Source: Euglena gracilis (Eukaryota). From it: a DNA stretch of 64,000 nt. Below, piece by piece: positions 1 to 58,318 of the stretch; positions within the stretch are counted from its first letter, which is position 1; every line of letters starts with the position of its first letter. The notes under the pieces are model-generated. The model searched no databases, was not told the DNA's origin, and saw only the letters and a list, made by a program, of their open reading frames with translations. The translations under genes and the position numbers were made by a program. The stretch spans positions 31,272,012 through 31,336,011 of the forward strand of contig CP154954.1 in assembly GCA_039621445.1 (NCBI GenBank). Reading direction: 5' to 3'.

Positions 1-386
1 GTGTCCGCGAGGGACAACAAAGTCCAGGAGGGATCTTCATTTTGTCCAAAATTCCCTGCTAGGGGGTGTATGGGACGCGGGGGGGGGAGGACGGGGGGAG
101 ACGCCCCTTAGAGACCGAATTTTTTTCCATCGCCGAACAAGGTGCCTGCAAGGTGCAAAAAAATGTTTGTAGACAAAGGGCCAGTTGTGGATAGTCCTGG
201 TTTGGTTAGGAGTATGTACAAATACAGCAAGCGCGAGTAAGCGAGCGAACGCTTGAGCAAAGCTCAAGGTTGGGGGTTTGGGGAGTATAGGTTTATGTGT
301 GATGGTCTAGAGGACCAGTGTGAAAGGGAGAGGAGGGGAAAAAGAGAGGGGGGGGGGTGTGAGGGCACCGGCGTCAGGGTGAATTA

Positions 387-913
387 TCACGTAGATAAAA
401 GCATCCGGTCTGTGGCTCTTTCGGCCAGGCGCAGTTGGCGGGCAACTGCCCGGGCGAGTATGATAGATAGATTCTCTGTCAGTTCCTGGAGCCGGCGTTG
501 TTTGACAATGCCGGCGAAAGCGTTTGTAGCCATGTGGAGGATTTCACGGAGGAGCTTGGCAGCGGCAGGGCCAGGACAGCCCCACGGGTTGAAAGTCACA
601 CCGGAGTAAGTCCCACTGATGCCGCGAACATCTGTCCTCTGCCTGGTTCCTTTTATGCAGCTCAGCATCGGGCAAAGTGCGTGAGACACGGGTGAGATTC
701 AGAGGCCACTGGGAGGGGGGCCAGAGGGTGTTCGATGGAAACGTCTACGGCAAGGTGCCGTCCTTTGTTCCGGCCGAGCAGTGGGAGGTCGGCATCGCGA
801 GTGCCAGATTCGCAGCTCTGCTCCTTGCGAACAGAATCGCCTGCTCGCTGGCAGAGATCGACGATGGCGTCCCGGAGGCAGTTATGTCTTTCGGTGACGC
901 CGTTCTTGCGGCC
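387..913 (-). pseudogene. 3' fragment of a second CRE-like non-LTR element (restriction-like endonuclease domain), frameshifted
   Basis: Manual translation RKNGVTERHNCLRDAIVDLCQRAGDSVRKEQ...RDADL...LAVDVSIEHPLAP then ...FNPWGCPGPAA...LSIILARAVARQL aligns by eye with the C-terminus of ORF 1438-3018. Confidence 0.75.
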
Positions 914-1437
914 TAATGATTGTACCGGGTTTTCACCTTCCCCTTACATCCTCCATCACGGTGGGTAGCACAGCTTCACCCAAACCGTGCCCCGGGCCCA
1001 GGGAAACGTCTCTTTTGGCCCTCGCCACAAGAGGAACCCCCTTGTGACTCCCTGTGCCGCCACAGGTCGCGGGTAGCTTATACTGTGGGAGTAATGTACA
1101 AAAGAGTGTTGTCAGGGTGCGGAGGTTGGTTAGCGGAAGATGAGCAAAGGTCACCTTCAATAAATATTGGGCGGGGAGGGGGGCGTTTGTACCTCTTTTG
1201 CCACAGGATGGCGTGTTTGTGTCGGGTTTTTTGGCTTTTGTTGTGTTCTGCTTCTCTGCGCGTCTATGTGACCCATTGATTTGTCTTTGGCTCGGCGTGT
1301 GGCTCTGCTCAAGGGGTAACTAGGGGTTACTGAGTTGTGTCTTCTTTGCTCATTTTGTAATCTGACCTTGGGGTGCTAACATAGTAGGTGAGAGTTCAAG
1401 GTTGGTTATTTGGTTGAGAGTTTGTGCTCAAAGGCCT

Positions 1438-4400
1438 TCAGACAGAATATGGTGAGTGGGCGGAAGACAGGGTGATCTCATCTTTGGAAGAATACAAGCT
1501 CCAAACGAGCTGTCTACTGATTTCTCTGATAAGTGTGAAGGACAGGCCTTGCCAAATGTCTGCTTCTGCGGCCCGCCGTTGCCACCCTTCCCGCTGCCCC
1601 AGAAGGGCCTTGAGGAGGGTGGCCATCAAGGAGCGCGCTTCTTGTCCCATGCCCCCGTAGCAATCCATGACGAATGGCATCAACCGCCAGCCCAGTCGTT
1701 GGCATGTTGCATCATATTTGGTATGCTTTTCAGCCTCCTGACGTGTTTGCCATTGTGAAAGGCTCTCTGCACTTCGGAGCGGATGACTTTGCGCAAGGGT
1801 GTGGCGGATTGTCACATCCACTGCAACGGGTCCATCACTGTCCAAGCGAGGAATGAAGATGTCCCCAGGCCGGGAACGGTCATCAACTCGTTGTTCTTTA
1901 CGGGCTGTGAATCCTGCCTTCTGTGTTGTGGTTGTCAGAAAGTCTTGGACAGCCCCGTGCCGCCGGGTGATGAAGTTTGATTTGCAGCAAACGAGGTGGT
2001 GTCCGAGAAAGTCTGATGGTCCAAAGCATTTGGGACAGAGGTTGGGATCGGATTCCATTGGTGTGAGAGTCATTCCGAGGGACCAACGAAGTGTGCAGCG
2101 GAATTCAGCCGTGGGTAACAGGGTGCGCAGTCCTTGAGATGGTGTCAAAGCGGCCCACGCCATAGCATGCGGTTGGCATTGGCTTGCAAAACGTACAGCA
2201 GCAGGTCCATTCAATGTGTCCCGAAGTGTTTTCTGGCGGGCAAGCATGCCCTGCTGGTTCCACCAACGTTGTGAATTGTGTGGAGACTGTGCCTGAGGAA
2301 TCAGGTTTTTGTCACTGGCCCATTGTGGCAGTGGAGCCATTTGACCAAGTTCATTGAGGGCTGTCTGTAAACAATCGTCAGTGTCCTTGGGAAGGATGTC
2401 CATGGCAGCAGGCAGGCCCAAGACAGAGGGAGCTCTTCGACAAAAGTCCACCACTTGAGACAATCTGGCAGGCACACGTTGAAATAGTGGATCCGAGATC
2501 CCCAGTCCACGGCATCTGATGGCCAGGGAAACTTGCAGCCATTCTTCTGGGGTGCAAGGGGAGCCGACCATGCCACTGAATGTTTCCCGAATAATTCCCG
2601 ACAATGTCTTGCATGCCGCTGTTGCAGAGGAGATTTTACAGGCGCGCAAGAGGTCATTCACTTTGCAAGCGGGTAAGCAAAACCGAAGCAAGGTGAATTG
2701 CACATGCGATTGAGGTAGGTGCTGAAGTACTGTGCAAGAACGTCGGATGTCTTCAATGCGCTTATTCCAAACTTCTTCACAGAAGGGGTCATCTTGGGGG
2801 TGGTGGACAGGGACCCCTAAAACTTTCAGACCAAAACCAGCAACAAAGGCGGTCAGTGGTATTTGATGTAAGGGGCTATCCTGTGGCGTGCCAGGGGGAA
2901 TGCAAGGGGCACCTTCTGTTGATGTGAACGCTGGTCCCCACAATCGACATTTTGCAGGGTTCACGGCCAACCCAAGCGTGGCTGCCTCGCGAATTAGAAA
3001 TGCAAGGGCATTGTGCAATTGTGCTGGCTATCCCAGCAGATGGGCATCGTCCAAGTACCACCCCTGCCATTCAACCAAACGTGAGAGGCCCTCACAAAGG
3101 TCTTGCACACCCCAGGCGAAAGCTGCAGGTCCGCATGGGTCGCCTTGTTGAGCTCCCCTCTGGGAAGGCAGACAATGGTTTCCACAATACAACTTGCTGT
3201 GTTGGGCGTAGCACGAATCCAGCCAAGGGCACACTTCTGGGCATCGTCTACGGATGGATTGCAGGATTTTTTCCCGTGACAAGGAGTTGAAGGCATTCCT
3301 GAAATCCACTTGAAGCAGCCCCCAGCGATTGTCTCTGCCCGAATGCAGAGTGTCCACCATCTGTTGGATTCCCATTGCGATCAATGGACATGCATTCGGC
3401 ACACCAACGCCACATTGAGGAGGACTCAGTTCTTTCAAAGCGTTCACCACTGTGGGATGACGCACGAGGCATTTGCCAACCAATCGGCGGAGTGTTTCAC
3501 CTGCTGCGATCGGGCGAGTGTCTTCATCACACACCGTGTGCTCCACAAGGTTTCCAAAAGCATCCTCTTCCATTGCTGTTTGTTTGTTCTGTTTTCGCAG
3601 AGGTGTCAACCTGGCAGAGGAAAGAATTGGGGCCATGCCGGGGTGAACACCGTGTGTAATTGCCCGACAGATGAAGGTATCAAGCACTTCGAGGAGGTCA
3701 TCTCCACAAGCCCCCATAGCTGGCGTTTTTTTTTTTGTTTTTTTAAAAAAAAACGTTTTTTTTGTTTTTTATTAAAAAAAACGGGCAAAAAAAACGGCCA
3801 AAAAAACAAAGGGGAAAATGATGGTCCAAATTTTGCCTTTGATTGCAAGGGTGAACCAATCTTAGCTCAAATGACTTGAAAACCAATACTTTTGGTTGTC
3901 TTCAACAAGATGGTCAAAATAGGGCATTTTTCTGCAATTTTGGGATGTTTCAACTTGAAACATCCCAAATTTGGTGTCTTTCTCTGACCGAGGATGGGCA
4001 AAAAAAGCTAAAATTGAAGACAAAAACTTTTTTGCCCTGGACCCTCAATGGCGTTTTTTTGTTTTTTTTAAAATTTTAAAAAAACATGTTTTTTTAAAAA
4101 AAACGTGTTTTTTTTGACTTCGTTTTAAACGAAGTGCCAGCTATGCAAGCCCCTGGGTAGTCTCCAACCATGGCCTTGAGGTGGTCAGGTCTCAGGCCGG
4201 AAGGTCCCGGTGCGGATTCCTTTGGGAACCCGAATATAGCTTTGCGCAAATTTTGCAATCGCTCTTTTGTGCTTTCCGGAGGAAAGGTAATCGTTTGGGA
4301 AGGGTCGGCCACTGGGATGCGCAGTGGAGGCTCTGGTGGGTGAAGGTCACGCAGCCTTTGAATCACTTTTGGGTCATTGCTGTTCTGAACCCCCTCAGAG

Positions 4401-5345
4401 GTGAGCTCTCGGCATGCTTTTGAAATAGCCCCGTGGCCAACAAGGCTTTCAATGCGGGAGAGGAACCGTTCTTCAGTTGCCTAGGCTGCCAGTGCTGTTT
4501 TTTTGCCTTGTCTGTCTGCCTTGTGGCTTTTGTGGGAGACTGGAGTCCAACCAAGAATCAAATACAGGACGGGTGAGATACAAGCGAGCTCGTTCTGCAA
4601 TTTTCTCCCCACCATCGCCCAGTTCGATCGCCCGCCACGTTGCAAAGGACAAAGCACCGCTTTGGGGAAGGCCCACAAGGCGTGCAGGGTTTCCCAGCCA
4701 GGTTCCCTATTGAAATGCCTCAACAATTGCAGGTAGGTTTGATTGACATTGAGGAGGGCTCCACGCGGCAGGTATACAAGGGTGCCTGTCATCAAAAGAA
4801 ATTTCCTCAAAAGTGGGATGAAGGGATGGTGGGCATGGAGCAGAGAATGGCGTACCCCAGCAATGTGATTTTGGCCAATGGGGGTTGGTGGGGGTCTAGC
4901 TGGGGCTGGTGACGATGCTGCTGCGGTTGTTGCCACTAAGGATGAAGAGCTACCCAATGGGGGGTTGGAGAAGTTCAGGAAAGGCGTCGCCTGATTAGCT
5001 TGCATCCACATGGCCCCAACGTCTGACAGGGGGAAGGGTCCTGGTCCTTGTGTGCCAATTGGGTTCTCCATGATGACCGTGGAGCATATTGAGGGGAGGC
5101 CTTGTTGGCCAAAGAACAATGCACCCAGCAGATTTGGGAACCAAGATTCCCCCCTTTCCAAGGTGGTGCGGGTGTGGTGGTGTGTGATCGGGGGGTGAAA
5201 TTATTTAAATTGTGCTGCCTGGCGCCATGTCCAACGTCCTCACCCGACACCGACGGGGGGCTCTGCGGGTGGTGGTGCTGTAGGAGGGATGGAGATTTGT
5301 GATGCTGGCGCCATGTCAATATCCTCACCCGAAACAAATGGTGGG
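1438..5345 (-). pseudogene. Reverse transcriptase / RLE polyprotein (interrupted)
   Basis: SAPGPSGLRPDHL, RPIAAGETLRRLVGK, VDFRNAFN, QRGAQQGDP, WYLDD, CPKC..HHLVCC, RPGDIF..VAVDVT; in-frame TAG at 3028-3030, MITE at 3715-4145, frameshifts upstream. Confidence 0.9.
3715..4145. mobile_element. hAT-type MITE inserted in the CRE RT gene
   Basis: TIR CATAGCTGGC/GCCAGCTATG; perfect 8-bp TSD CAAGCCCC; removal restores DYPGACGDDLL. Confidence 0.9.
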
Positions 5346-5859
5346 TCTGTTTCGGGCACAACAAAATGGAAATTTGGGGGTAACAGCCGCCGAGACGCGC
5401 TCGCGCGAGGCCAAAAAAAAAAAAAAAAAAGCACAAGCACTTTGTGTTGTGTTGGTCAAAAAATGGCCCAAACAAATGGCAAAAATTGACCACTTTTTTG
5501 TTTTTTGGAACCCAAAAATCCTTCCGAGTTTGGAATGGTTCGCCTCCGCGCCGGAGGCCATAATACGGCACAAAAAGAAAAAAAAAAATATAAAAAAAAG
5601 AAAAAACCCGTATTTGTTAAATTGCTCCACCCGCGCGGCGCCCCGCGCGGCCGGCTCGCCCCCCCTCAGCCCCCCCCCCCCCCCCGCTGTGCTAGCCCCC
5701 TGTGTGCTGTCTTGTGCAGGAGTGAAGGCACAAGCATTTTTCTTTGTTTGGCCGACGTTGGGTGGTCTTTTCCGATCACCGGAGAGGGAACCTGGGGGTT
5801 GTCAAGTTCATTTTGCTGAAGTGGGAAGGTTGCAGGCCAGCAGAATGTGGCAGAACTGG

Positions 5860-6590
5860 CTGGCTGGGGGGCCATTGTTGCAGACCAAAAGGTGTATGTG
5901 CTGTCTGGCTGGGGGGCCACTGTTGCAGGCGAAAATGTGGAGGAACATGGTCGCCAGTTTGTCGGGGGCTTTTCTGGCTGAGAGCAAAAATGGTGTCAGG
6001 GGGGGCCTTTGCAGGCCCATGGCCTTTGCAGGCCACTGGGACAAAATGGTGCAACAGGACAAAAAGGTGTCACAGGGGGGCCTTTGCAGGCCCAGGGCCT
6101 TTGCAGGCCACTGGAGCAAAATGGTGTTGGAGGGGGGCCTTTGCAGGCCCAGGGCCTTTGCAGGCCACTGGGGCAAAATGGTGCAACAGACCGAAATGAT
6201 GTTACAGGGGGGCCTTTGCAGGCCCAGTGACTTTGCAGGACATTGGGGTAAAACAGTGTCACTGAGGGGTTGGGGTGGCAAAATGCTTTTCAATGTCAAG
6301 TCAAAACTGCTGCAAAAAGTGTCACTGAGGGGTTGGGGTGGCAAAATGTTTTTCAATGTCCAGCCAAAACTGCTGCAAAATGTGTCACAGCTTTTGGTGT
6401 AACATGTGCTGTGAAAACTGGGGTTTGCCACTTCAATTGATCACAGGTTTGGGATGCAATGCAGAACACAGAAAAGAAGACACTGGAGCTGAAAGTGGCA
6501 CCTAATGGTTGGCAGATGGGGGGCCTTTGCAGGCCCAATGGGGGGGGCCTTTGCAGGCCCAATGGGGGGGGCCTTTGCAGGCCCAATAGG
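5860..6590. repeat. GGGGGCCTTTGCAGGCCCA minisatellite in the CRE 5' region
   Basis: About ten copies of the CCTTTGCAGGCC core; also at 52870-53605. Confidence 0.85.
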
Positions 6591-6868
6591 AACCAGCAGG
6601 GCTGAAAAGCCCAGTAAGTCGAACTTCTGGGGCTGCAGATAAGGGCTGAGAAACCCACTTCAACTGGAGAACTTGTCCTCGAACTGCACTGCACCTTGGT
6701 CTCGGCTATGAACTTGAACTTGAACTTGAACCCTTTTTCTTTGAACTTGATACCAGTACTTGTTACTTGAATTGTTCTTGTAACTTGAACTGCCAGGGAC
6801 TTCACCTTGACCAGCACTTTTAACTTGAACCCCTCCAGGGGCTTTCACTTCTCGACCATGTGATATGT

Positions 6869-6894
6869 CGAAAAAAAATAGACACTCAGAAAGT
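6869..6894 (-). ncRNA. Euglena spliced-leader exon copy (relic, no GT donor)
   Basis: Reverse complement reads ACTTTCTGAGTGTCTATTTTTTTTCG, the 26-nt Euglena SL; followed by ACATATC. Confidence 0.85.
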
Positions 6895-7824
6895 TTTTGC
6901 GCATTAGGACTTCCCTGCCTATTGTCGGACCAGAATTCGCCCTCAGGTGACACCTCTGAACTGTGTGTGGGATCGACCGGAGACACCAAAAAAAAGTTTG
7001 AAATCCCACCCCCACCTCTTGTCTCAAGGATGCAAAAATCATCGCAGATTTTCCGAGAAAGGAGAAAATCTTTGTTTCTTCACACCAAGTGTCAATATGC
7101 CAATGGTCTCAATCAAAGATTTTCACCTGAACTTTGCGTCCAAGTGGATGCACATGGGTTGTGCCGCAAATGCTCCAACGCTCTGAACTGGCATGGCCAC
7201 AATCCATTCACCCTGTCTGCAGGCAACCAATGTCATCCCCTCAGTTTGATGATTTTTTGCCCCTTCCAAATTCCATTTACACTGAGCTTGAACTTCCAAC
7301 TGACTTGTGGACCAAGGCAGTCAAGCTCCTCCTTTATCATCCCAGTGGGTGTGTCCAGGTGGGGTGGTACGGTGAATCGCAAGGGAAGTAAGGGAAGGGA
7401 ATCGGCCAAACAGCCATCGACCCCTCCCACCTCCTCCCGTATTTTCGGGAGCACCAATTTTCGACCCCAAAATTTTTTCCCGGATTTGTTAAAAAAACCT
7501 GTGAAATTGCTGCAGTGGGGTGGGTCGACCCCCCCCCACGGATGGGGAGTCGACCCACCCAACAGGCCCTCCCGAACTGCCCCCCAATGATCCATGGGTT
7601 TTCATTCATTTGCGGTGGACAATGGGCACTCCTTTATCTGATGGTTCCATCAGACACGCAAATGTCATGCCCCCCCCCCCCCCGAGCTGTCCCCCCCCCT
7701 AGCATTGCGGCGAAAGAAATATTGAAATATTTCATGAAATTTCACAAATATATTTTCTTATCGGTGAAGGATTTAAAAACGTGTTCAGCCCGCCAAATGC
7801 CTGCCCTGAAATTCGTGGTCATGA

Positions 7825-7980
7825 ACACGTTTTCAATGAGGGCATTTGTGGCAATGACACGTTTTCCATCAAGGCATCTGTGTTCAGGCACGTTTTCAAT
7901 GAGGGCATTTGTGGCAATGACACGTTTTCCATTAAGGCATCTGTGTTCAGGCACGTTTTCCATTAGGGCATCTGTGGCAA
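7825..7980. repeat. ~51-bp tandem repeat, about 3 copies
   Basis: CACGTTTTCAATGAGGGCATTTGTGGCAATGACACGTTTTCC... repeated. Confidence 0.75.
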
Positions 7981-8079
7981 CCCCGAGCAAGAAGCAAAAA
8001 TCGCTGTCATGAAAAAACGGCGTGCGGTTGAGAGGCCGGGTGGTCCTCAACGGGTGAGGCGGGGCGGGGGCACTCTAAC

Positions 8080-8565
8080 TAGGGTTGTGCCAATTAATCG
8101 TTTTGGGCTGGCGAACGATTAATCGCGATTAATCGGGGGGTCTCGGACGATTAACGATTAATTGGTCCCTTCCGATTTTTGATAATGAAATCTGCCTGAG
8201 AAATTATATCATCGAACATAGACCATTTCTTTGTGTGCCCGCTGACGAATTTTTGTTTCATTCTCCGTTGACATGGCAGAACGAAGCTTGTTAGGAACTG
8301 TTGTTTCTTAATCAGAATCGCGCGATGTTTCACGGGCAGGTTCGCTGACTCGTTGGGCCACTTTTAACAACCGTTTTCATGGCGTACCAGCAAGTAGTGT
8401 GCTATCTGAATGACTACCCACAAATTTCTGTTGATTTCAACAAATATTGTGTTTGCATCCACATTACATCCACAATGAACGATTAAGCGCCATGGGGCCG
8501 AACGATTCGATTAATCGGCGATGACGAACGATTAATCGGTTAATCGATTAATCGAAACAGCCCTA
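8080..8565. mobile_element. 486-bp TAGGG-terminated MITE, copy 1
   Basis: TIR TAGGGTTGT/ACAGCCCTA; subterminal GATTAATC repeats; TSD CTCTAAC; near-identical copies at 37731 and 55084. Confidence 0.9.
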
Positions 8566-8626
8566 CTCTAACAACACGACAGAAGGCTAAGTTGCCTTGG
8601 AGCACAACGACAGGGAGTGGCGGACT

Positions 8627-8788
8627 TCACGGCACACAACACGCTTTACACAAAAAAGAGCCATACTTTGGTGGCTCTTTTGCCAAATCTTGGCAATGAA
8701 AATGATATGCCAATCCGCAGGCGTCACAGACAACTTTGTTCAGCTCCACACAATTTGGATTTTTGGGAATGGCAACACCACAAAATCT
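8627..8788 (-). pseudogene. PHD-finger fragment
   Basis: FCG...VVCDACGLAYHFHCQDLAKEPPKYGSFLCKAC fits C4HC3 spacing, with the first Cys missing. Confidence 0.65.
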
Positions 8789-8804
8789 CGACCATGTGAT
8801 ATGT

Positions 8805-8830
8805 CGAAAAAAAATAGACACTCAGAAAGT
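8805..8830 (-). ncRNA. Euglena spliced-leader exon copy (relic)
   Basis: Exact 26-nt SL inside an 82-bp block repeated at 6850-6931 and 8786-8867. Confidence 0.85.
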
Positions 8831-9049
8831 TTTTGCGCATTAGGACTTCCCTGCCTATTGTCGGACCCTACGATCCCTGATCGCCAGATCCGCGACAGTA
8901 AATTAGGTATTGGCACTGTCCATCCCCTGTTCTGCAGTGTATTTTTCACGAAAGGAAGTACACCAAGTACACCAAGCACTGGAATACGTTTGGAAAGGTT
9001 ATCTTGAAGTTGAAGAATTGGTGATACCATTCATGAACACCTGGAGCCG

Positions 9050-11171
9050 ATGATCAAGTTGGAAGTTCAAGTTCCAAAACAAAAAACCTGCTGTCCAGTT
9101 CGAGATCAGAACACTACTAGCTGGCTGTTTGACTTGCAGACGAAATTTGACAAGAAGATGATGATCCTTAAATTGGTTCTGCTGCTGTTCACCTTCACCA
9201 GCTCTTGGCAGGTGAATTCCCCCTCTCCCTCTCTCCCCTCCTGCCCCCCCTCCTGTCACTGCACTCCCTGGGCCAGTGTTGTCCTTACACGTTTTACAGT
9301 GTTGTACTTACAGTGTTGTACTTACCTTGCTTTTCCTTCCCCCAACAAAATCATTTTACAACACATCCACACCCAGCGACCCAACATTCACCCACAAATC
9401 TTTCATCATCCAAATTTCTCCCCCACACCCCCCTTCCCCATTTCACTGCCAAATGCCCCCCTCCTTTCACTTCCACATCTGGGACATTCCTCCACCACTA
9501 CCAGTGGAATCTTACCGACCACTGTTGCAAAAAATCTCCCCTTCCCATTTTCACACCTTCCCCCCCAACATTCCTGCGCCATTTGCCATACCCATCCCCT
9601 TGTCCCATGTGTTCCCCCGGGGACCTTGGGTACACTTTCTCCCCATTCCTCCCAAACCCAAAAATTTTTCTGGGGTTCTCCTTCCCTAAACACCACCACA
9701 TGGCAAACATGGGCCTCTCTGGTTCTGACTGCAAAAAAGACAAACCCCACACACCTCCCTGAACCTTTCCAGGCAAAGCCCTACACTTTCCCGAACAAAA
9801 AATGGATTCTTCTCTGCGGTGACATTCAGCCCAACCCCGGGCCAGTGTCTTCAGCCAACTGCCCTTTTCCAACCAACCTATCCGCCGGCAAACTGACACC
9901 TTGGGCGTGGTCACGCGGCACCTGGGCGTCTTCCCCCAGCAGGACAAGTACCAGCCCACAACCTTGGTGCACTGTCCACCCTCACATGGGACAACCTGGC
10001 GCTTCCCCTCGGCCTACGCTGCTGCCCGGCCGCACCAGCCCCCCGCACGCAATCACGGCTGCTCACCCCTTCAACAAGTCTTCCCTTCCAAGATATCTAG
10101 GCCCGCCGCCCCCTCTCCCCGAATGACATTTGGCCTACCACCGCACTCACTACCCCAGCCGGCTGCATCCCCACGGACGTCTACCCTTCGCCGCCTCTCG
10201 AAAAGTCAAGAAGACGAGAACGACCATCCACCCTCCCGCAATACACTGTGGGGCCTAGCCGGTCGTTTGTCAAAGCTTAACCTCCCCCATCCAATATCCA
10301 GGAAGTGTATGTACCATATACTCCGGATCATGTTCAATGTCCTCCTAGATCTCCAAACAGCATCGCTTCTGCACCTTACCATGGGTCGCCTTATCTCTCT
10401 CCTCCTCTCCGTCCTCTCCCTCAACTGGCTTCTTATACTCACCCTGAAATATTACAACAATGCCACCTGTGCTCCCCCCTCACAAGAACTTGCAGAACGC
10501 GGGCTTGGACAACGCGGCTCCTATCCCATCCCGACCCATATTTGGGACACTGTTGTCCCCCCCAGCCTCATCCACACCCTCCGCTACCATTCACCACCAC
10601 CATCTCTTCAGCGACGCCCCTCCCCACTCACTTTTGTCCTTCTCCACTCTTTGGCACGGGACAAGTTCCTTCTTCCCCTGCCAAGATCTTCGGGGGACTT
10701 CCACCCCTCCTCCAACATGGCCTCTTTTATCCACCCCAAAAACAGCAGTAAAGTCAGCTTTATTGCCGATTTGCGCTGGGCGAACGCATTCTCCAACCCT
10801 CCACCCTTCCACCTCCCCTCCCTTCCCCAAATCTCCCACACCATTTCCAAATTCCCCCCTGGCACACTGTGGGCTGCCACCATCGACCTCACCAATTTCT
10901 TTTGGAGTCTCGAACTTCCTCCTTCCGCCAAGCACGCCTTCCGCACCTCCTCCTTCTACTTCCCTTGCCTTCCCTTCGGGTGGAACATCCCCCATACTAG
11001 CCCAACTTACCCTTCAAGACCTTATCAAGCAGGCTGTTTCCTCCCTCCCTTCGACGTACACCAACGGAACACACTTCTTCATCTTCACCTACTGTGACGA
11101 CATTCTCGTCCTTGCCCCATCGTACTCCCTCTGCAACCTCGTGACCGGCACCATCACATCTACCCTTCTCT
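9050..11171 (+). mobile_element. DIRS-order-like (Ngaro/VIPER/TATE type) retroelement RT, copy A, frameshifted, cut by gap
   Basis: FIADLR, ATIDLTNFFW, CLPFGWN, SPILAQ, YCDDILV. Confidence 0.7.
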
Positions 11172-11184
11172 NNNNNNNNNNNNN
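11172..11184. other. Assembly gap
   Basis: 13 Ns. Confidence 1.
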
Positions 11185-11257: not shown

Positions 11258-31544
<20,287 letters not shown>

Positions 31545-37730: not shown

Positions 37731-38216
37731 TAGGGCTGTTTCGATTAATCGATTAATCGATTAATCGTTCGTCATCGCCGATTAATCGAATCGTTCGGCC
37801 CCATGGCGCTTAATCGTTCATTGTGGATGTAATGTGGATGCAAACACAATATTTGTTGAAATCAACAGAAATTTGTGGGTAGTCATTCAGATAGCACACT
37901 ACTTGCTGGTACGCCATGAAAACGGTTGTTAAAAGTGGCCCAACGAGTCAGCGAACCTGCCCGTGAAACATCGCGCGATTCTGATTAAGAAACAACAGTT
38001 CCTAACAAGCTTCGTTCTGCCATGTCAACGGAGAATGAAACAAAAATTCGTCAGCGGGCACACAAAGAAATGGTCTATGTTCGATGATATAATTTCTCAG
38101 GCAGATTTCATTATCAAAAATCGGAAGGGACCAATTAATCGTTAATCGTCCGAGACCCCCCGATTAATCGCGATTAATCGTTCGCCAGCCCAAAACGATT
38201 AATTGGCACAACCCTA
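37731..38216. mobile_element. 486-bp TAGGG MITE, copy 2 (inverted), in transposase exon 1
   Basis: 7-bp TSD CTTGTTC; removal restores DNPCSTGSTIQHLRP. Confidence 0.9.
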
Positions 38217-38391
38217 CTTGTTCAACAGGTTCCACAATTCAACATTTGCGTCCCACTGTCCAGATTGGTGGAAGAAAGTTCTTGCAAATTTGGACGGAGC
38301 AATTTCCTTGGGTCCGTCATGATGCTGCAAAAGATGCTGCGTTTTGCAAAATCTGTGAAGAGGCAGTTCATTTGAATCTTCCACTGCCAAC

Positions 38392-38504: not shown

Positions 38505-38693
38505 GTCGTCCAAGGTGTCCGGATCCAAGGCGGCTTTTGCGGACAATGGCTTCAAGAATTGGAAGAAAGCCGTTGAAAAGTTTCGCGAGCACGAAGTCAA
38601 TGATTTTCATCGTGCTTGTTCAATGGGCCTTGTGGCTCGTGAGCAGGTTCCAGTGACGAACATTTTTGGCCTCCATTGTGGGGGGGGGGCTCC

Positions 38694-38968
<275 letters not shown>

Positions 38969-39267
38969 GGTTCAAAATGAGATGTTTGAAAGAAGACATT
39001 CCTGAATTGTCCACTTGGCTCCAAGGGGATCATTGGAAGTGGCTGTCACCAGACATCCAAAATGAAGTATTTCAGATGTTTGCAGACCACATTTTGAGGA
39101 AGAAACTAAGTGACATTCAACAACGCAAGCATTTTGCTATGATCATGGATGAGACCAGTGACATCTCCGTGAAAGAGCAGCTTTCTTTCTCTGTCCGCGT
39201 CGTTGATGACGATCTACACACCAAGGAGATATGGTGTGGTTTCTACGAGGTTCGGGACCTCAGTGGA

Positions 39268-43779: not shown

Positions 43780-44600
43780 TAAGGTTGGACGATTAATCTT
43801 AATCGACGGCACCGAACGATTAATGCCGATTAATCGGGGGGGTGGCGAACAATTACCGAACGATTAATGCCCCCTTTGGGTTCCTAGCATTATGATGACC
43901 AACAAACACTTCATTGCCCTTGAAAAATAATGTTTTTCCTTAAAAATAATTTTTTTCCGGGATCCCTTTCTTTTTGGCACGTGCATTCTCACCAACATCT
44001 GACCTTTCTTCCTGGACATCAGCCGACAGGGCTAAGCTGAACACCGCTTCACCTCACACTGCCTTCCCTTACTGAAAAAAATGGGTCATGAGGATGATAT
44101 TTTGCCACAGTTGAAACGGGAGGTGGGGCAATGGGTGACCCAAAATGGCCCTCTGGCCATCACTGCTTCTGAAGCACCAAGGCTGAAAATTGCAATTGCA
44201 ACTTTGGCCAAAACCGGCACATGCAAAGCAACTCCCTCCCAAAATTGCACAGGCTGAGGAAGTGGCCGTGTTGAGCGCAGTTTTTCTCACCAGAGTCTCC
44301 TGCATAGCAACTTGCGCGCTAAGCTGGATGACTCTTCCATCTGTGCTCTGATGTCTGTGCGTATGAGTATATCCCGTTTGTTTCCTAACGGGTCTCCCCC
44401 AAAAGAAAGCAACGCGCAGTGACATTCCTGTGAGATAGAGCCTCCAAAATTATCACTCCCAAGTGTTTTCCTGCACTGCCTTTTCAATGGTTTCTTTGGG
44501 AAGACCGATTATTTCGATTAATCACCCCCTGGCCGAATGAACGATTAATCAAGGGGTGGCGAACGATTAATCAAAAAATCGATTAATCGAAACAACCTTA
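43780..44600. mobile_element. hAT-like non-autonomous element related to the TAGGG MITE
   Basis: TIR TAAGGTTG/CAACCTTA; GATTAATC subterminal repeats; TSD GCCGTTGA vs GCCGTTGG. Confidence 0.75.
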
Positions 44601-45080
44601 GCCGTTGGAAGGAAGACTGGGGAATGAAACCCGTTCCTGGGGAAGAAAGGACTGCCTCTTCGGCGTCGGCGACTTGCGAACTGCTGGTTCACGATTGCGC
44701 AGGACACTGCGCCCGTTACCCATGCCGGCCTTCACTAAGTTGGGCCGACCGCGGGCAGTTGCCCCCCCGGGTCCGTCGTGCACACGACGTGCACGTGCCC
44801 CATGTCTTTTTCCATACTGTCGAAAATCCGTCTTTTTGATTTTCGACAACGGTTTTAAACCGATTTAAAACGATGTTTTAAACGACTGATAAAAGACGAG
44901 GCCCACACTGCCCTTGACCCGAACCATCCCCGAAAATTTTTCTGCAAAAAATGGCCATTTCGCAAGGAAAAAGGTCAATTTTTGCTTTTTCAAAAAAACA
45001 TGTTTTTTTGCGTGTTTTTTTTTAAAAAATGCTTTTTTGTTTTTTTTAAAAAAACAAAAAAAAATGTCAACCCTGCATAA

Positions 45081-46742: not shown

Positions 46743-47289
46743 CATAGAGGTCTGGTCTGCTCCTTGCAGTCTTTTCCATCCACTCAGAAAAACGCAACCA
46801 GTCTCACACAGAAGTGCCCACGGGGGCTCAACAAAAATGTCCATGCGGGCCTAAATTTCTCGTCCATTAGGATCAATAATTGTGTCCAGGGGGGTTCTCC
46901 GGAACGTGTCCGCGAGGGACAACAAAGTCCAGGAGGGATCTTCATTTTGTCCAAAATTCCCTGCTAGGGGGTGTATGGGACGCGGGGGGGGAGGACGGGG
47001 GGAGACGCCCCTTAGAGACCGAATTTTTTTCCATCGCCGAACAAGGTGCCTGCAAGGTGCAAAAAAATGTTTGTAGACAAAGGGCCAGTTGTGGATAGTC
47101 CTGGTTTGGTTAGGAGTATGTACAAATACAGCAAGCGCGAGTAAGCGAGCGAACGCTTGAGCAAAGCTCAAGGTTGGGGGTTTGGGGAGTATAGGTTTAT
47201 GTGTGATGGTCTAGAGGACCAGTGTGAAAGGGAGAGGAGGGGAAAAAGAGAGGGGGGGGGTGTGAGGGCACCGGCGTCAGGGTGAATTA

Positions 47290-50593: not shown

Positions 50594-51026
50594 CATAGCT
50601 GGCGTTTTTTTTTGTTTTTTTTTAAAAAAAACGTTTTTTTTGTTTTTTATTAAAAAAAACGGGCAAAAAAAAACGGCCAAAAAAACAAAGGGGAAAATGA
50701 TGGTCCAAATTTTGCCTTTGATTGCAAGGGTGAACCAATCTTAGCTCAAATGACTTGAAAACCAATACTTTTGGTTGTCTTCAACAAGATGGTCAAAATA
50801 GGGCATTTTTCTGCAATTTTGGGATGTTTCAACTTGAAACATCCCAAATTTGGTGTCTTTCTCTGACCGAGGATGGGCAAAAAAAGCTAAAATTGAAGAC
50901 AAAAACTTTTTTGCCCTGGACCCTCAATGGCGTTTTTTTGTTTTTTTTAAAATTTTAAAAAAACATGTTTTTTTTTAAAAAAAACGTGTTTTTTTTGACT
51001 TCGTTTTAAACGAAGTGCCAGCTATG
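50594..51026. mobile_element. hAT-type MITE in the CRE RT gene, copy B
   Basis: TIR CATAGCTGGC; TSD CAAGCCCC. Confidence 0.9.
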
Positions 51027-52307
51027 CAAGCCCCTGGGTAGTCTCCAACCATGGCCTTGAGGTGGTCAGGTCTCAGGCCGGAAGGTCCCGGTGCGGATTC
51101 CTTTAGGAACCCGAATATAGCTTTGCGCAAATTTTGCAATCGCTCTTTTGTGCTTTCCGGAGGAAAGGTAATCGTTTGGGAAGGGTCGGCCACTGGGATG
51201 CGCAGTGGAGGCTCTGGTGGGTGAAGGTCACGCAGCCTTTGAATCACTTTTGGGTCATTGCTGTTCTGAACCCCCTCAGAGGTGAGCTCTCGGCATGCTT
51301 TTGAAATAGCCCCGTGGCCAACAAGGCTTTCAATGCGGGAGAGGAACCGTTCTTCAGTTGCCTAGGCTGCCAGTGCTGTTTTTTTGCCTTGTCTGTCTGC
51401 CTTGTGGCTTTTGTGGGAGACTGGAGTCCAACCAAGAATCAAATACAGGACGGGTGAGATACAAGCGAGCTCGTTCTGCAATTTTCTCCCCACCATCGCC
51501 CAGTTCGATCGCCCGCCACGTTGCAAAGGACAAAGCACCGCTTTGGGGAAGGCCCACAAGGCGTGCAGGGTTTCCCAGCCAGGTTCCCTATTGAAATGCC
51601 TCAACAATTGCAGGTAGGTTTGATTGACATTGAGGAGGGCTCCACGCGGCAGGTATACAAGGGTGCCTGTCATCAAAAGAAATTTCCTCAAAAGTGGGAT
51701 GAAGGGATGGTGGGCATGGAGCAGAGAATGGCGTACCCCAGCAATGTGATTTTGGCCAATGGGGGTTGGTGGGGGTCTAGCTGGGGCTGGTGACGATGCT
51801 GCTGCGGTTGTTGCCACTAAGGATGAAGAGCTACCCAATGGGGGGTTGGAGAAGTTCAGGAAAGGCGTCGCCTGATTAGCTTGCATCCACATGGCCCCAA
51901 CGTCTGACAGGGGGAAGGGTCCTGGTCCTTGTGTGCCAATTGGGTTCTCCATGATGACCGTGGAGCATATTGAGGGGAGGCCTTGTTGGCCAAAGAACAA
52001 TGCACCCAGCAGATTTGGGAACCAAGATCCCCTTTCCAATGGTGGCACTGCGGGTGGTGGTGTGGTCGGGGGGATGGAAATTTGTGATGCTGGCGCCATG
52101 TCAACGTCCTCACCCGACACCGACGGGGGCTCTGCGGGTGGTGGTGCTGTAGGAGGGATGGAGATTTGTGATGCTGGCGCCATGTCAATATCCTCACCCG
52201 AAACAAATGGTGGGTCTGTAGGAGGTCCGGGGTTACTTTCAATGTCCCCACAGGACAGTAAAGACCGACCTCGTCCTGCTCCCCCCGATGCTGCCAGGGT
52301 AGGCTGT

Positions 52308-52715
52308 GGAGGCTAGGCGCGCCGCTCGGGGGGGTCCGGGGCTTTGCGCGGGTGTGGCCGTGCGCGGGGGACCCTGGGGGTTGTCCCCCCGTCCATGTGC
52401 CTAGCATAGCCAAGAAAAAAAAAAATTGGTGAAAAATCGCGACTTTTTTGAGGCCCAAAAATGACCATGACCATTTCGGACACAAAATGGCAAATTTGGG
52501 GGCCGCGCGCTCTGCAGGCCAAAGCACTTTTTGGTCAAAAATGGCCCATGGCCAAAATGACCATTTTTGGACCCAAAAATCCCCGATAGGGGGGTGCGGG
52601 GGGGGCTGGCTGCGGGGGCCTTTGCACCCCCTCCCCCCCTCCCGGTGGCGCGGCCGGTCCGGGGCCGCTCGCCCCCCCCTCCGCCCCCCCCCCCCCCCCG
52701 CTGTGCCTAGCCTCC
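52308..52715. mobile_element. Harbinger-like MITE in the CRE leader
   Basis: TIR GGAGGCTAGGC/GCCTAGCCTCC; 3-bp TSD TGT; removal gives AKDSTQPTLAASG. Confidence 0.85.
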
Positions 52716-53883
52716 TGTGTGCTGTCTTTTGCAGGAGTGCAAGGCACAAGCATTTTTCTTTGTTTGGCCGACGTTGGGTGGTCTTTTCCGATCACCGGAG
52801 AGGGAACCTGGGGGTTGTCAAGTTCATTTTGCTGAAGTGGGAAGGTTGCAGGCCAGCAGAATGTGGCAGAACTGGCTGGCTGGGGGGCCATTGTTGCAGA
52901 CCAAAAGGTGTATGTGCTGTCTGGCTGGGGGGCCACTGTTGCAGGCGAAAATGTGGAGGAACATGGTCGCCAGTTTGTCGGGGGCTTTTCTGGCTGAGAG
53001 CAAAAATGGTGTCAGGGGGGCCTTTGCAGGCCCATGGCCTTTGCAGGCCACTGGGACAAAATGGTGCAACAGGACAAAAAGGTGTCACAGGGGGGCCTTT
53101 GCAGGCCCAGGGCCTTTGCAGGCCACTGGAGCAAAATGGTGTTGGAGGGGGGCCTTTGCAGGCCCAGGGCCTTTGCAGGCCACTGGGGCAAAATGGTGCA
53201 ACAGACCGAAATGATGTTACAGGGGGGCCTTTGCAGGCCCAGTGACTTTGCAGGACATTGGGGTAAAACAGTGTCACTGAGGGGTTGGGGGCAAAATGCT
53301 TTTCAATGTCAAGTCAAAACTGCTGCAAAAAGTGTCACTGAGGGGTTGGGGTGGCAAAATGTTTTTCAATGTCCAGCCAAAACTGCTGCAAAATGTGTCA
53401 CAGCTTTTGGTGTAACATGTGCTGTGAAAACTGGGGTTTGCCACTTCAATTGATCACAGGTTTGGGATGCAATGCAGAACACAGAAAAGAAGACACTGGA
53501 GCTGAAAGTGGCACCTAATGGTTGGCAGATGGGGGGGCCTTTGCAGGCCCAATGGGGGGGGCCTTTGCAGGCCCAATGGGGGGGGGCCTTTGCAGGCCCA
53601 ATAGGAACCAGCAGGGCTGAAAAGCCCAGTAAGTCGAACTTCTGGGGCTGCAGATAAGGGCTGAGAAACCCACTTCAACTGGAGAACTTGTCCTCGAACT
53701 GCACTGCACCTTGGTCTCGGCTATGAACTTGAACTTGAACTTGAACCCTTTTTCTTTGAACTTGATACCAGTACTTGTTACTTGAATTGTTCTTGTAACT
53801 TGAACTGCCAGGGACTTCACCTTGACCAGCACTTTTAACTTGAACCCCTCCAGGGGCTTTCACTTCTCGACCATGTGATATGT

Positions 53884-53909
53884 CGAAAAAAAATAGACAC
53901 TCAGAAAGT
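53884..53909 (-). ncRNA. Euglena spliced-leader exon copy (relic)
   Basis: Exact 26-nt SL. Confidence 0.85.
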
Positions 53910-55083
53910 TTTTGCGCATTAGGACTTCCCTGCCTATTGTCGGACCAGAATTCGCCCTCAGGTGACACCTCTGAACTGTGTGTGGGATCGACCGGAGACA
54001 CACAAAAAAAGTTTGAAATCCCACCCCCACCTCTTGTCTCAAGGATGCAAAAATCATCGCAGATTTTCCGAGAAAGGAGAAAATCTTTGTTTCTTCACAC
54101 CAAGTGTCAATATGCCAATGGTCTCAATCAAAGATTTTCACCTGAACTTTGCGTCCAAGTGGATGCACATGGGTTGTGCCGCAAATGCTCCAACGCTCTG
54201 AACTGGCATGGCCACAATCCATTCACCCTGTCTGCAGGCAACCAATGTCATCCCCTCAGTTTGATGATTTTTTGCCCCTTCCAAATTCCATTTACACTGA
54301 GCTTACTTGGTACCCTAACCGTTGCACGCCAGACCGAGGAGACGTCGCGATCGTCGGACGGCCAGAATCTGAGTCGAAAATTTGTCGCCATTTTCAGGAT
54401 TTTTGATTGTGTATTAAGAGGCTTAATAAACCTTACAAGAAAGTTTTCCTCTAGAATCAACGGACCTGAGGGCCTTGGGGGGGCACCAGAGTGGTGAAAA
54501 TTATGATTCCCCACTGACCGAAAAACAAGACCCCAGGCGGACGATGGTGAGTTGGGTGGTGATCGCCCGTGTCTGAGAGAAGAGGCTTTGCTTTCATCGA
54601 GGGGTATTTATACATGGACGATTGACACAGAGCCAGAAATACCCTCGCGATAGCCGGAATTTTGGTGAAGTGCAAAGTGGTATGTGTGTGGACATTGCAG
54701 TGTAATGGTCGAGATTGGTCATGGGAGTGTCCTTGGCCAGAGGGGTGGGACGCCGGTTCTGGTCATGAGCCCGGCGTCTCTAAAACGCCGGACTTAACCT
54801 TAAACAAAGATGTCTCGGACGCCGGTTCTGTCCAAAGCCCGGCGTTCCAAACGCCGGTTCCGTCCTTCGGACGGAACCGGCGTTTGGAACGCCGGACTTT
54901 GGACAGAACCGGCGTCCGAGACCTCTTTTTTGTAGTAAAGGCATCTGTGTTCAGGCACGTTTTCCATTAGGGCATCTGTGGCAACCCCGAGCAAGAAGCA
55001 AAAATCGCTGTCATGAAAAAACGGCGTGCGGTTGAGAGGCCGGGTGGTCCTCAACGGGTGAGGCGGGGCGGGGGCACTCTAAC

Positions 55084-55569: not shown

Positions 55570-55808
55570 CTCTAACAACACGACAGAAGGCTAGGTTGCC
55601 TTGGAGCACAACGACAGGGAGTGGCGGACTTCACGGCACACGACACGCTTTACACAAAAAAGAGCCATACTTTGGTGGCTCTTTTGCCAAATCTTGGCAA
55701 TGAAAATGATATGCCAATCCGCAGGCGTCACAGACAACTTTGTTCGGCTCCACACAATTTGGATTTTTGGGAATGGCAACACCACAAAATCTCGACCATG
55801 TGATATGT

Positions 55809-55834
55809 CGAAAAAAAATAGACACTCAGAAAGT
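55809..55834 (-). ncRNA. Euglena spliced-leader exon copy (relic)
   Basis: Exact 26-nt SL. Confidence 0.85.
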
Positions 55835-58318
55835 TTTTGCGCATTAGGACTTCCCTGCCTATTGTCGGACCCTACGATCCCTGATCGCCAGATCCGCGAC
55901 AGTAAATTAGGTATTGGCACTGTCCATCCCCTGTTCTGCAGTGTATTTTTCACGAAAGGAAGTACACCAATATGGGGGGGGGGGGTGGTACACCAAGCAC
56001 TGGAATACGTTTGGAAAGGTTATCTTGAAGTTGAAGAATTGGTGATACCATTCATGAACACCTGGAGCCGATGATCAAGTTGGAAGTTCAAGTTCCAAAA
56101 CAAAAAACCTGCTGTCCAGTTCGAGATCAGAACACTACTAGCTGGCTGTTTGACTTGCAGACGAAATTTGACAAGAAGATGATGATCCTTAAATTGGTTC
56201 TGCTGCTGTTCACCTTCACCAGCTCTTGGCAGGTGAATTCCCCCTCTCCCTCTCTCCCCTCCTGCCCCCCCTCCTGTCACTGCACTCCCTGGGCCAGTGT
56301 TGTCCTTACACGTTTTACAGTGTTGTACTTACAGTGTTGTACTTACCTTGCTTTTCCTTCCCCCAACAAAATCATTTTACAGCACATCCACACCCAGCGA
56401 CCCAACATTCACCCACAAATCTTTCATCATCCAAATTTCTCCCCCACACCCCCCTTCCCCATTTCACTGCCAAATGCCCCCCTCCTTTCACTTCCACATC
56501 TGGGACATTCCTCCACCACTACCAGTGGAATCTTACCAACCACTGTTGCAAAAAATCTCCCCTTCCCATTTTCACACCTTCCCCCCCAACATTCCTGCGC
56601 CATTTGCCATACCCATCCCCTTGTCCCATGTGTTCCCCCGGGGACCTTGGGTACACTTTCTCCCCATTCCTCCCAAACCCAAAAATTTTTCTGGGGTTCT
56701 CCTTCCCTAAACACCACCACATGGCAAACATGGGCCTCTCTGGTTCTGACTGCAAAAAAGACAAACCCCACACACCTCCCTGAACCTTTCCAGGCAAAGC
56801 CCTACACTTTCCCGAACAAAAAATGGATTCTTCTCTGCGGTGACATTCAGCCCAACCCCGGGCCAGTGTCTTCAGCCAACTGCCCTTTTCCAACACCTAT
56901 CCGCCGGCAACTGACACCTTGGGCGTGGTCACGAGGCACCTGGGACGTCTTCCCCCGGCAGGACAAGTACCAGCCCACAACCTTGGTGCACTGTCCACCC
57001 TCACATGGGACAACCTGGCGCTTCCCCTCGGCCTACGCTGCTGCCCGGCCGCACCAACCCCCCGCACGCAATCATGGCTGCTCACCCCTTCAACAACTCT
57101 TCCCTTCCAAGGTATCTAGGCCCGCCGCCCCCTCTCCCCGAATGACATTTGGCCTACCACCGCACTCACTACCCCAGCCGGCTGCATCCCCACGGACGTC
57201 TACCCTTCGCCGCCTCTCGAAAAGTCAAGAAGACGAGAACGACCATCCACCCTCCCGCAATACACTGTGGGGCCTAGCCGGTCGTTTGTCAAAGCTTAAC
57301 CTCCCCCATCCAATATCCAGGAAGTGTATGTACCATATACTCCGGATCATGTTCAATGTCCTCCTAGATCTCCAAACAGCATCGCTTCTGCACCTTACCA
57401 TGGGTCGCCTTATCTCTCTCCTCCTCTCCGTCCTCTCCCTCAACTGGCTTCTTATACTCACCCTGAAATATTACAACAATGCCACCTGTGCTCCCCCCTC
57501 ACAAGAACTTGCAGAACGCGGGCTTGGACAACGCGGCTCCTATCCCATCCCGACCCATATTTGGGACACTGTTGTCCCCCCCAGCCTCATCCACACCCTC
57601 CGCTACCATTCACCACCACCATCTCTTCAGCGACGCCCCTCCCCACTCACTTTTGTCCTTCTCCACTCTTTGGCACGGGACAAGTTCCTTCTTCCCCTGC
57701 CAATATCTTCGGGGGACTTCCACCCCTCCTCCAACATGGCGTCTTTTATCCACCCCAAAAATAGCAGTAAAGTCAGCTTTATTGCCGATTTGCGCTGGGC
57801 GAACGCATTCTCCAACCCTCCACCCTTCCACCTCCCCTCCCTTCCCCAAATCTCCCACACCATTTCCAAATTTCCCCCTGGCACACTGTGGGCTGCCACC
57901 ATCGACCTCACCAATTTCTTTTGGAGTCTCGAACTTCCTCCTTCCGCCAAGCACGCCTTCCGCACCTCCTCCTTCTACTTCCCTTGCCTTCCCTTCGGGT
58001 GGAACATCCCCCATACTAGCCCAACTTACCCTTCAAGACCTTATCAAGCAGGCTGTTTCCTCCCTCCCTTCGACGTACACCAACGGAACACACTTCTTCA
58101 TCTTCACCTACTGTGACGACATTCTCGTCCTTGCCCCATCGTACTCCCTCTGCAACCTCGTGACCGGCACCATCACATCTACCCTTCTCTCAAATAACCT
58201 CCTCATCTCCCCCAAATCCTCCCTTGTGCCGACACAAGAAATCACTTGGCTAGGCAAGGTCTTCAACCTTTGCAACCGGACCATCCAAAACACCCTTCCC
58301 ACATCCCAAAGGGCTCTT

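Follow-up and report, generated by a model that had tools for sequence, protein, structure and literature searches.

A complete, intron-less spliced-leader exon in an 82-bp direct repeat of Euglena gracilis: a candidate retrotransposition relic within a possible long target-site duplication

Nuclear copies of a spliced-leader (SL) exon can arise when a trans-spliced RNA is reverse transcribed and reintegrated, which is how the accessible parts of two reports explain the relict SLs of dinoflagellates (PMC5585692, PMC6050394). SL exons also serve as the target of retrotransposons that encode a restriction-like endonuclease (RLE), namely those of the CRE clade (SLACS, CZAR and CRE1/2) and the nematode element NeSL, according to the accessible part of a third (PMC4640811). 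Here we describe a locus of Euglena gracilis (contig CP154954.1 of assembly GCA_039621445.1, positions 31,272,012 to 31,336,011, a stretch of 64,000 nucleotides called the window below) in which a complete SL exon lies within an 82-bp direct repeat, upstream of a reverse transcriptase (RT) element that resembles R2. Our preferred explanation, to which we assign a probability of about 0.5, is that the SL is a retro-derived relic and that the 82 bp are a long target-site duplication (TSD) created by the insertion of a segment, X, that now separates the two repeat copies. We consider the locus most likely to be an ordinary by-product of retrotransposition, with no evidence for a new mechanism. 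There is no support for the targeting of SL genes, for an encoded SL that functions or for a mobile unit of 82 bp.

Set beside the dinoflagellate relicts, as the available portions of those reports describe them, the Euglena locus is alike in that its nuclear DNA encodes an SL exon immediately 5' of a unit that is transcribed, but it differs in belonging to a euglenid, in carrying one complete SL rather than truncated, stacked relicts, in sitting at a repeat or retrotransposon unit rather than at a host retrogene, and in being known here without re-trans-splicing. With the CRE clade and NeSL it shares the association of an RLE-type element without long terminal repeats (non-LTR element) with SL sequence and duplicated target DNA. 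Those elements, however, lie inside bona fide SL RNA genes and are flanked by duplicated gene halves, whereas here the SL is uncut and has no intron or gene context, and both repeats lie 5' of the RT open reading frame (ORF). The duplication made by SLACS is about 49 bp, and that of R9 is reportedly very long, at 126 bp. R2 and R9 have the same order of RT, CCHC motif and restriction-like endonuclease as the element described here; the elements in the window differ in not lying in ribosomal DNA and in having relatives that are polyproteins with multiple 2A peptides, two of five of which have a Dam methyltransferase match, and the maker of the 82-bp duplication is only a candidate RLE encoder. 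A further parallel is the 5'-truncated long interspersed nuclear element (LINE) with 3' transduction, in which a truncated copy and adjacent low-copy DNA are inserted together between direct repeats. X likewise comprises a truncated element and low-copy DNA as one piece, but its 3' junction lacks a poly(A) and the length of the duplication is far above the usual 4-20 bp. On SL-linked retrotransposons or SL relics in Euglena itself we found nothing specific in the literature, subscription journals and supplements aside.

An initial annotation of the window had placed the 82-bp repeat at 6850-6931 and 8786-8867 and again in a second copy of the region, and exact matching bears this out: the 82-mer, searched on the plus strand, occurs four times, starting at 6850, 8786, 53865 and 55790. 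The repeat and its immediate surroundings consist of the following parts.

6850..6931, minus strand: 82-bp block, copy 2, proximal to unit U (exact match)
8786..8867, minus strand: 82-bp block, copy 1, distal, identical to 6850-6931 (exact match)
53865..53946, minus strand: block copy 2 in segmental duplicate B (exact match and alignment)
55790..55871, minus strand: block copy 1 in segmental duplicate B (exact match and alignment)
6869..6894, 8805-8830, 53884-53909 and 55809-55834, minus strand: complete 26-nt SL exon, no intron (exact search)
5700..6868, minus strand: unit U, a high-copy, repeat-rich region starting directly after the SL (reads and contigs, ORF reading)
6932..8785, minus strand: putatively inserted segment X, 1854 bp (loose ends, paralog contig, depth bins)
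53947-55789: X in copy B, 1843 bp
8627..8785, minus strand: 3' end of a PHD-finger ORF, cut at 8785 within the finger (PF00628, E 2.9e-5, 24.5 bits against a cutoff of 24)

All four blocks are identical over 82/82 positions and each abuts X directly, so that both ends of X are bounded by the repeat. Because the bases flanking the blocks are unlike on either side, the repeat length is exactly 82 bp. Positions 1-11171 and 46906-58190 (copies A and B) are segmental duplicates that align in three stretches at 98.8-98.9% identity, with a scaffold gap at 11172-11184, and since copy B is such a duplicate the four blocks count as two independent positions. Read in minus-strand order, each block is composed of a 37-nt flank, the 26-nt SL ACTTTCTGAGTGTCTATTTTTTTTCG and 19 nt starting with AC. 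The weak complementarity that had been proposed between the block ends holds by eye for 6 of 7 bases, but it has no folding support: the RNA fold of the 82 nt leaves the ends unpaired (z = -0.45), and 62 of 200 shuffles fold equally well or better.

The case for a relic begins with the extent of the SL sequence. With up to three mismatches allowed, the 26-nt SL was found four times in the window, every time exact and on the minus strand, and none of 100 shuffles used as a control gave any match; no further SL fragments or block pieces were found elsewhere within the window. The 26-mer is the E. gracilis SL as printed in the accessible part of PMC6242988, and the SL primer given in that of PMC5654406 carries two extra 5' bases, AC. 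A scan of metagenome contigs with the 26-mer gave four loci (L001-L004) holding five SL gene copies, in all of which TAC precedes the exon and GTATA follows it. At three of the four loci there is also a 5S rRNA gene, on the strand of the SL, 5S-SL linkage being the euglenid repeat unit. The block agrees with these five gene copies over the 26 exon bases only, so that identity is confined to the exon (26/26): the base at -1 is A instead of C and that at +1 is A instead of G, AAA precedes the SL where the genes have TAC, and the exon is followed in 4/4 window copies by AC, not GT, as the initial annotation had correctly observed. No 5S or other Rfam family reached its gathering score in the window, and only chance-level matches occur in 6600-9100. 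On this sequence comparison the block is not an SL RNA gene. An SL present as exon alone has the form that it takes in a mature mRNA and so points to reverse transcription, which favors the background remark of the initial annotation on SL relics left by trans-spliced RNAs after reverse transcription.

A second intron-less SL exon was found on a 988-bp contig (L005) in a bacterial metagenome-assembled genome (MAG), so that such relics occur elsewhere too. Along this contig (positions 1-988) the SL, of the Euglena type, comes after TAGGGG repeats and ahead of a short untranslated region (UTR) and the start of an ORF, and it is evidently euglenid DNA that was binned with a bacterium. This MAG holds only one SL and no relative of the RT, and a tblastx comparison of L005 with the window gave low-complexity matches only. 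The viral contigs that were searched contained neither an SL match nor a relative of the RT protein.

The second part of the case concerns where the exon sits. It lies on the same strand as the RT ORF (3768 to 1438) and upstream of it, again as first annotated, and directly abuts U, a transcribed unit whose RNA-like 5' end is exactly where the SL sits. An ATG is found 9 nt past the SL, although the window frame there reads MVEK and stops after four codons; a transcribed paralog of U opens the ORF MGREVKAPGGVQV (start MGREVKAPGG), relative to which the window copy has lost one base. The comparison of reads and contigs with the window took in 24 loose ends out of 1812 and 15 joints out of 113. 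Among them are 53 reads of RNA run X21 that match 6821-6854 and then diverge, with the minus-strand reading ..GGTGATTCCTAATGGGCCGAGAAGTGAAAGCCCCTGGAGGGGTTCAAGTTA.. (also given as ..CCTAATGGGCCGAGAAGTGAAAGCCCC..); ACATATCAC is the U-side sequence where the SL would join in transcripts of the U/RT family. A contig of DNA run X9 matches the window up to 6866, and hence over 17 of the 19 nt that follow the SL, running into the start of U. In minus-strand reading, these 17 nt are preceded by 27 other letters ending in A7 and, ahead of those, by the sequence at 956, the high-copy boundary taken as the 3' end of the RT element; the contig has no SL. Since at least 17 of the 19 nt thus continue into U at an SL-less locus, the 19 nt belong to U and not to a free 82-bp unit. 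The same contig indicates that another genomic U starts 2 nt inside the SL junction, without an SL and head-to-tail behind an RT-element 3' end. Because U precedes the RT element here and follows the RT 3' end there, the R2-like retrotransposon downstream probably has U as its 5' part. Low-level minus-strand (sense) RNA covers both U and the RT element in the stranded RNA run X24 (3.61 versus 0.17 in the bin 5969-6341), the strand of this run having been calibrated on the SL-bearing plus-strand exon 7223-7310 described below.

The identification of the 82 bp as a TSD depends on X being a discrete piece of foreign DNA. X is made up of low-copy DNA (6932 to about 7460) and a fragment of a high-copy element (about 7461 to 8785). 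Contig depth, which when summed does not equal copy number, is about 10-100 times that of the flank over 7461-8952, near the flank over 6715-7087 and intermediate over 7088-7460. At 8785, where the PHD-finger ORF is cut, 26 DNA contigs (X1) and 18 RNA reads (X24) go on with sequence that completes the first CxxC of the finger, and this upstream continuation elsewhere identifies X as a 5'-truncated copy of a dispersed, transcribed element family. Near the other end, a single DNA contig of 285 nt aligns with 6938-7107, to which it is 94% alike, whereas its other 115 letters are unrelated, which puts a breakpoint within 6 nt of that end of X. A 239-nt contig present in both DNA runs spans the junction of block 2 and X (6869-7107). 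Identical repeats therefore abut a discrete segment with breakpoints at 8785 (26 contigs) and at about 6938 (the 285-nt contig), and because the identical 82-bp copies are composite and abut foreign DNA on both sides, a TSD is the simplest account of them.

The low-copy part of X also contains a trans-spliced plus-strand exon, 7223-7310, for which 77 RNA reads carry the SL tail ...ATTTTTTTTC before 7222. A further 160 RNA reads splice from 7310 to an exon outside the window; the window bases after 7310 are AC, not GT, and a search of the window for the next exon, with the 21 letters of the loose end at 7310 and up to 3 mismatches, found no match. Nested in X is a miniature inverted-repeat transposable element (MITE):

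8080..8565, strand not assigned: 486-bp MITE with TAGGG... inverted ends, nested in X (self-alignment, empty-site joint)

This MITE, which we presume to be hAT-like, has repeated CGATTAATCG motifs and a flanking (A)CTCTAAC duplication. Three copies that are 99.8% identical lie in the window (8080-8565, 55081-55569 in copy B, and 37731-38219), and its empty site, with the joint 8076 to 8571, is found in 1 DNA contig and 10 RNA reads. The MITE is younger than X and plays no part in the mechanism behind the repeat. As a separate observation, the middle of X in copy B ends in a palindrome of about 130 bp (54802-54931).

The 37-nt flank bears on how the SL arrived. Its last 11 nt, TCCTAATGCGC, which are preceded by AG, match 10/11 the paralog RNA immediately before CGAGAAGTG, a match equaled by 108 of 200,000 shuffles. 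To judge by this alignment, the window looks like a resident copy that gained AAAA, the SL and 14 nt relative to the paralog, and such a gain could come about through repair with an SL-bearing cDNA at a homologous site, or through template switching. Whether this alignment or that of a full-length retrocopy is preferred, the SL derives from a mature RNA. A candidate reading of the 82 bp as a first exon common to two retrocopies was rejected, as no AG precedes TTTTGTGG in other copies; it also demands two identical 5' ends plus the 37 nt.

The history that we favor would then run as follows. A mature trans-spliced RNA of the U family, consisting of the SL, a 9-nt 5' UTR and the ORF from its ATG on, would have been reverse transcribed to its 5' end and fixed, so that U came to start exactly behind a complete SL exon that has no intron, with the 37 nt upstream as flank. 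A homologous site, or one close to it, may have been where the cDNA entered, given the likeness of the last 11 nt of the flank to the start of a resident paralog exon. Later, the 1.85-kb X (a 5'-truncated PHD-ORF element and the low-copy DNA that it carried) would have landed on this junction. Filling in of staggered cuts 82 bp apart would have duplicated the SL together with the 37-nt flank before it and the 19 nt of U after it. The MITE would have entered X thereafter, and the whole region of about 11 kb would have been duplicated last. The upstream truncation of X would fit target-primed reverse transcription, and its low-copy, genomic-looking downstream end would fit 3' transduction.

Several observations weigh against this history. 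The 10/11 match to the paralog suits a 44-nt SL-bearing insertion as well as it suits a full-length retrocopy, and the two alignments of the paralog have not been reconciled. U itself has no detected TSD or poly(A): its upstream flank is not repeated in 1-1700 or 44500-48400, where the best matches are of 8-9 nt with chance E-values, and its 3' end lies in nested repeats. The insertion of X is not a tidy one either, since there is no poly(A) at its 3' junction, its low-copy and high-copy portions make it heterogeneous, and copies A and B have unrelated middles (7290-7933 versus 54305-54937, about 640 bp). Given this patchwork and the missing poly(A), a single clean retrotransposition is an assumption, and the unrelated middles imply that X has been reworked since the segmental duplication. 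The 239-nt contig begins exactly at 6869, without a break at 6931, which hints that other loci may share the AAAA and SL and means that the contig graph is not fully explained. An empty site, with flank, one block and U but no X, was not among the joints listed. The limited share of loose ends and joints covered weakens the reading further, as does the uncertain independence of the DNA runs, which may come from the sample used for the assembly of the window itself.

The RT element downstream, in whose family U is probably the 5' part, is represented by these features.

1438..3768 (copy B 48317-50740), minus strand: ORF with RT, CCHC and restriction-like endonuclease (Pfam, profile, motifs)
50975..52312, minus strand: N-terminal part in the same frame, copy B, which includes RT motif 0 and the 2A peptide LLSCGDIESNPGP
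956..1437, minus strand: probable 3' UTR of the RT element; position 956 is a high-copy boundary (RNA loose ends, depth bin 747-1119)

The RT matches Pfam RVT_1 (E 3.9e-8) and has an in-frame TAG after YLDD, and the motifs CPKC..HHLVCC, RPGDI and DVT are present. An RT with a C-terminal CCHC and RLE is common to all RLE clades, which comprise CRE, R2, R4, NeSL and HERO in the part of PMC4640811 available, and so does not single out CRE. A profile of 35 relatives matched the R2 structures 9nl3_A and 9dou_A with E-values of 1.3e-44 and 2.1e-44 (positions 199-899, from the RT to the C-terminus). Because this match runs from the RT through the C-terminus, the element is assigned, from its protein profile and at group level, to the R2-like RLE non-LTR retrotransposons. 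It was the family profile that gave the R2 match, as a PDB search with the lone C-terminal ORF gave 0 hits and the C-terminal 280 aa retrieved only unnamed clusters in the ESM Atlas. None of the names CRE, SLACS or CZAR appears among 82 and 93 homologs, of which the few that are named are uncharacterised insect proteins, a Giardia hypothetical protein and one 'ribonuclease HI/exonuclease III' entry. The closest long relatives (P0087, P0088, P0090 and P0091) share 32-53% identity with the RT-RLE query, and P0089 shares 33%. These five, from public metagenomes or transcriptomes, are polyproteins of 1613-2111 aa with 3-4 2A sites each, and P0088 and P0091 match the Dam methyltransferase family PF05869 upstream of the RT. 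The type is that of an RLE element whose N-terminus is modular and holds multiple 2A sites. The window copy retains only the last 2A and the part downstream of it, and homology to the relatives starts at 51734.

In copy B the frame from 52312 to 48317 is continuous save for in-frame stops and one insertion. The insertion, of about 430-450 nt in the RT domain (3707-4145; 50597-51046 in copy B), is in frame by chance. It is skipped, with an 8-nt overlap, by 5 DNA contigs per run and has a bin depth among the highest in the stretch, on which grounds it is probably another MITE. With this MITE-like insertion, the in-frame TAG and further in-frame stops, the copy is dead. Copy A has a T-rich low-complexity stretch (5356-5632) in place of the 2A-coding region of copy B (52219-52648), possibly through a fault of assembly or consensus in copy A. 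A fragment of another RLE domain lies on the minus strand just past the downstream end of the RT element (689-910; 47335-47789 in copy B). It has 33% identity to residues 579-646 of the RT-RLE protein, and its position next to the RT element means that elements are nested or adjacent here.

Other explanations give the 82 bp a different origin. The repeat could be a head-to-tail joint, in which a 3' terminus (the 37 nt, with its A4 end) meets the SL-capped 5' terminus of the next element and X is a short non-autonomous member that has nothing but the termini in common with them. Tandem copies would yield the order seen at the two loci, U before the RT element here and the RT 3' end, followed by A7, abutting the 5' end of U in the X9 contig, and a run of A4 does precede the SL in the window. 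We hold this to be doubtful all the same, because the longest match of the 37 nt to the RT-element 3' region does not exceed 9 nt, the sequence differs right outside the 82 bp on both sides, and X starts in a truncated PHD ORF that extends upstream in the 26 DNA contigs, so that X lacks a family 5' terminus at its start. We also think it unlikely that the arrangement arose at the level of DNA, whether by the pasting in of X during repair of a staggered double-strand break or, for the duplication, by an error of assembly. Short-read contigs from two runs span the junction of block 2 and X, and the same arrangement is present in both segmental copies. It is true that X holds an unspliced first exon of a plus-strand gene, with acceptor at 7222 and donor at 7310, and therefore looks like genomic DNA, that there is a scaffold gap at 11172-11184, and that a 640-bp replacement distinguishes copy A from copy B; a retrotransposon with 3' transduction, however, accounts for low-copy, genomic-looking DNA equally well. 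The 82 bp might further be a short dispersed unit of which two copies reached this locus independently, whether by its own mobility or through recombination or gene conversion. Its sharp ends and perfect identity in four copies are what such a unit would show, and the contig break at 6869 suggests AAAA and SL at other loci. The small SL-bearing mobile unit that had been offered in the initial annotation is nonetheless very unlikely, since the block is pieced together from local sequence: of its last 19 nt, at least 17 continue into U at another locus that has no SL, and 11 nt of its 5' part match the start of a paralog exon. It has neither structure nor terminal repeats, and the depth bin of block 2 (16,443 and 34,475) is near the flank and below the high-copy families.

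The remaining alternatives assign the SL itself a role. An RLE element, of the X or the RT family, might recognise the SL relic and cut on either side of it, and RLE elements are indeed often target-specific, with SL exons as a known target in the accessible part of PMC4640811. The duplication is centred on the SL, and a second insertion boundary lies at most 2 nt from the SL/U junction at another locus. This is a single event, though, in which the SL is uncut and the site is not an SL RNA gene; the five SL gene copies of the metagenome loci are uninterrupted, and among the loose ends and joints listed no other copy of the family is linked to an SL, all of which makes such targeting distinctly unlikely. 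The more specific proposal of a CRE that targets SL genes finds no support. The block lacks the GT intron, the upstream TAC and the 5S gene, a comparison of its upstream 37 nt with the upstream regions of SL genes found no resemblance, and both repeats lie 5' of the RT ORF instead of flanking it, with no third 82-bp copy 3' of that ORF in the window. A variant that we likewise rate as unlikely is that the SL-capped 5' junction is a preferred landing site at which RLE elements cut about 80 bp apart, building head-to-tail arrays. If true, it would add to CRE/SLACS/CZAR and NeSL a third and independent example of targeting associated with the SL, with retro-copied SLs instead of SL genes as the target. 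Highly improbable, finally, is the earlier suggestion that the genomic SL is functional and gives transcripts a leader without trans-splicing. A complete SL followed by a short UTR and an ATG is the arrangement that this would call for, but no molecule starting at the SL is found among the loose ends and joints listed, the ORF is broken (MVEK*) after 4 codons, another family copy is without an SL, and the RT element is dead. A DNA-encoded SL would also lack the cap structure of the SL RNA unless transcription started exactly there.

Other features of the window touch the repeat less directly. A second retroelement, Y, lies in the opposite orientation at 9014-11171 on the plus strand (56035-58345 in copy B). 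It has a 693-aa ORF with the 2A-like LLCGDIQPNPGP, followed in a shifted frame by RT motifs with YCDD; its RT gives only a weak RVT_1 match (E 4.1e-5, below cutoff), Y is low-copy by depth, and by eye it looks LTR/DIRS-like. RNA from a diverged paralog of Y covers about 8990-9325. The possibility that the blocks are the split direct repeats of a plus-strand DIRS/Ngaro element Y was rejected, as both blocks lie 5' of the Y ORF and the end of X is a foreign ORF that has been truncated. A 77-78-bp satellite array makes up the final 4.4 kb of the window (59592-64000), 8-bp and 9-bp microsatellite-like arrays occupy 22572-22946, 23706-23986 and 38640-39021, and long G or C runs lie at 45955-46168.

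The intron-less SL exon is direct sequence evidence that mature trans-spliced RNAs have been reverse transcribed and fixed in a euglenid genome, a process already well documented for dinoflagellates. If the preferred reading of the repeat is correct, the 82-bp duplication would be an unusually long TSD. For annotators of Euglena assemblies the locus means that SL matches are not all SL RNA genes, and SL relics of this kind would permit a genome-wide count and dating of retrocopies and of full-length retrotransposons in Euglena.

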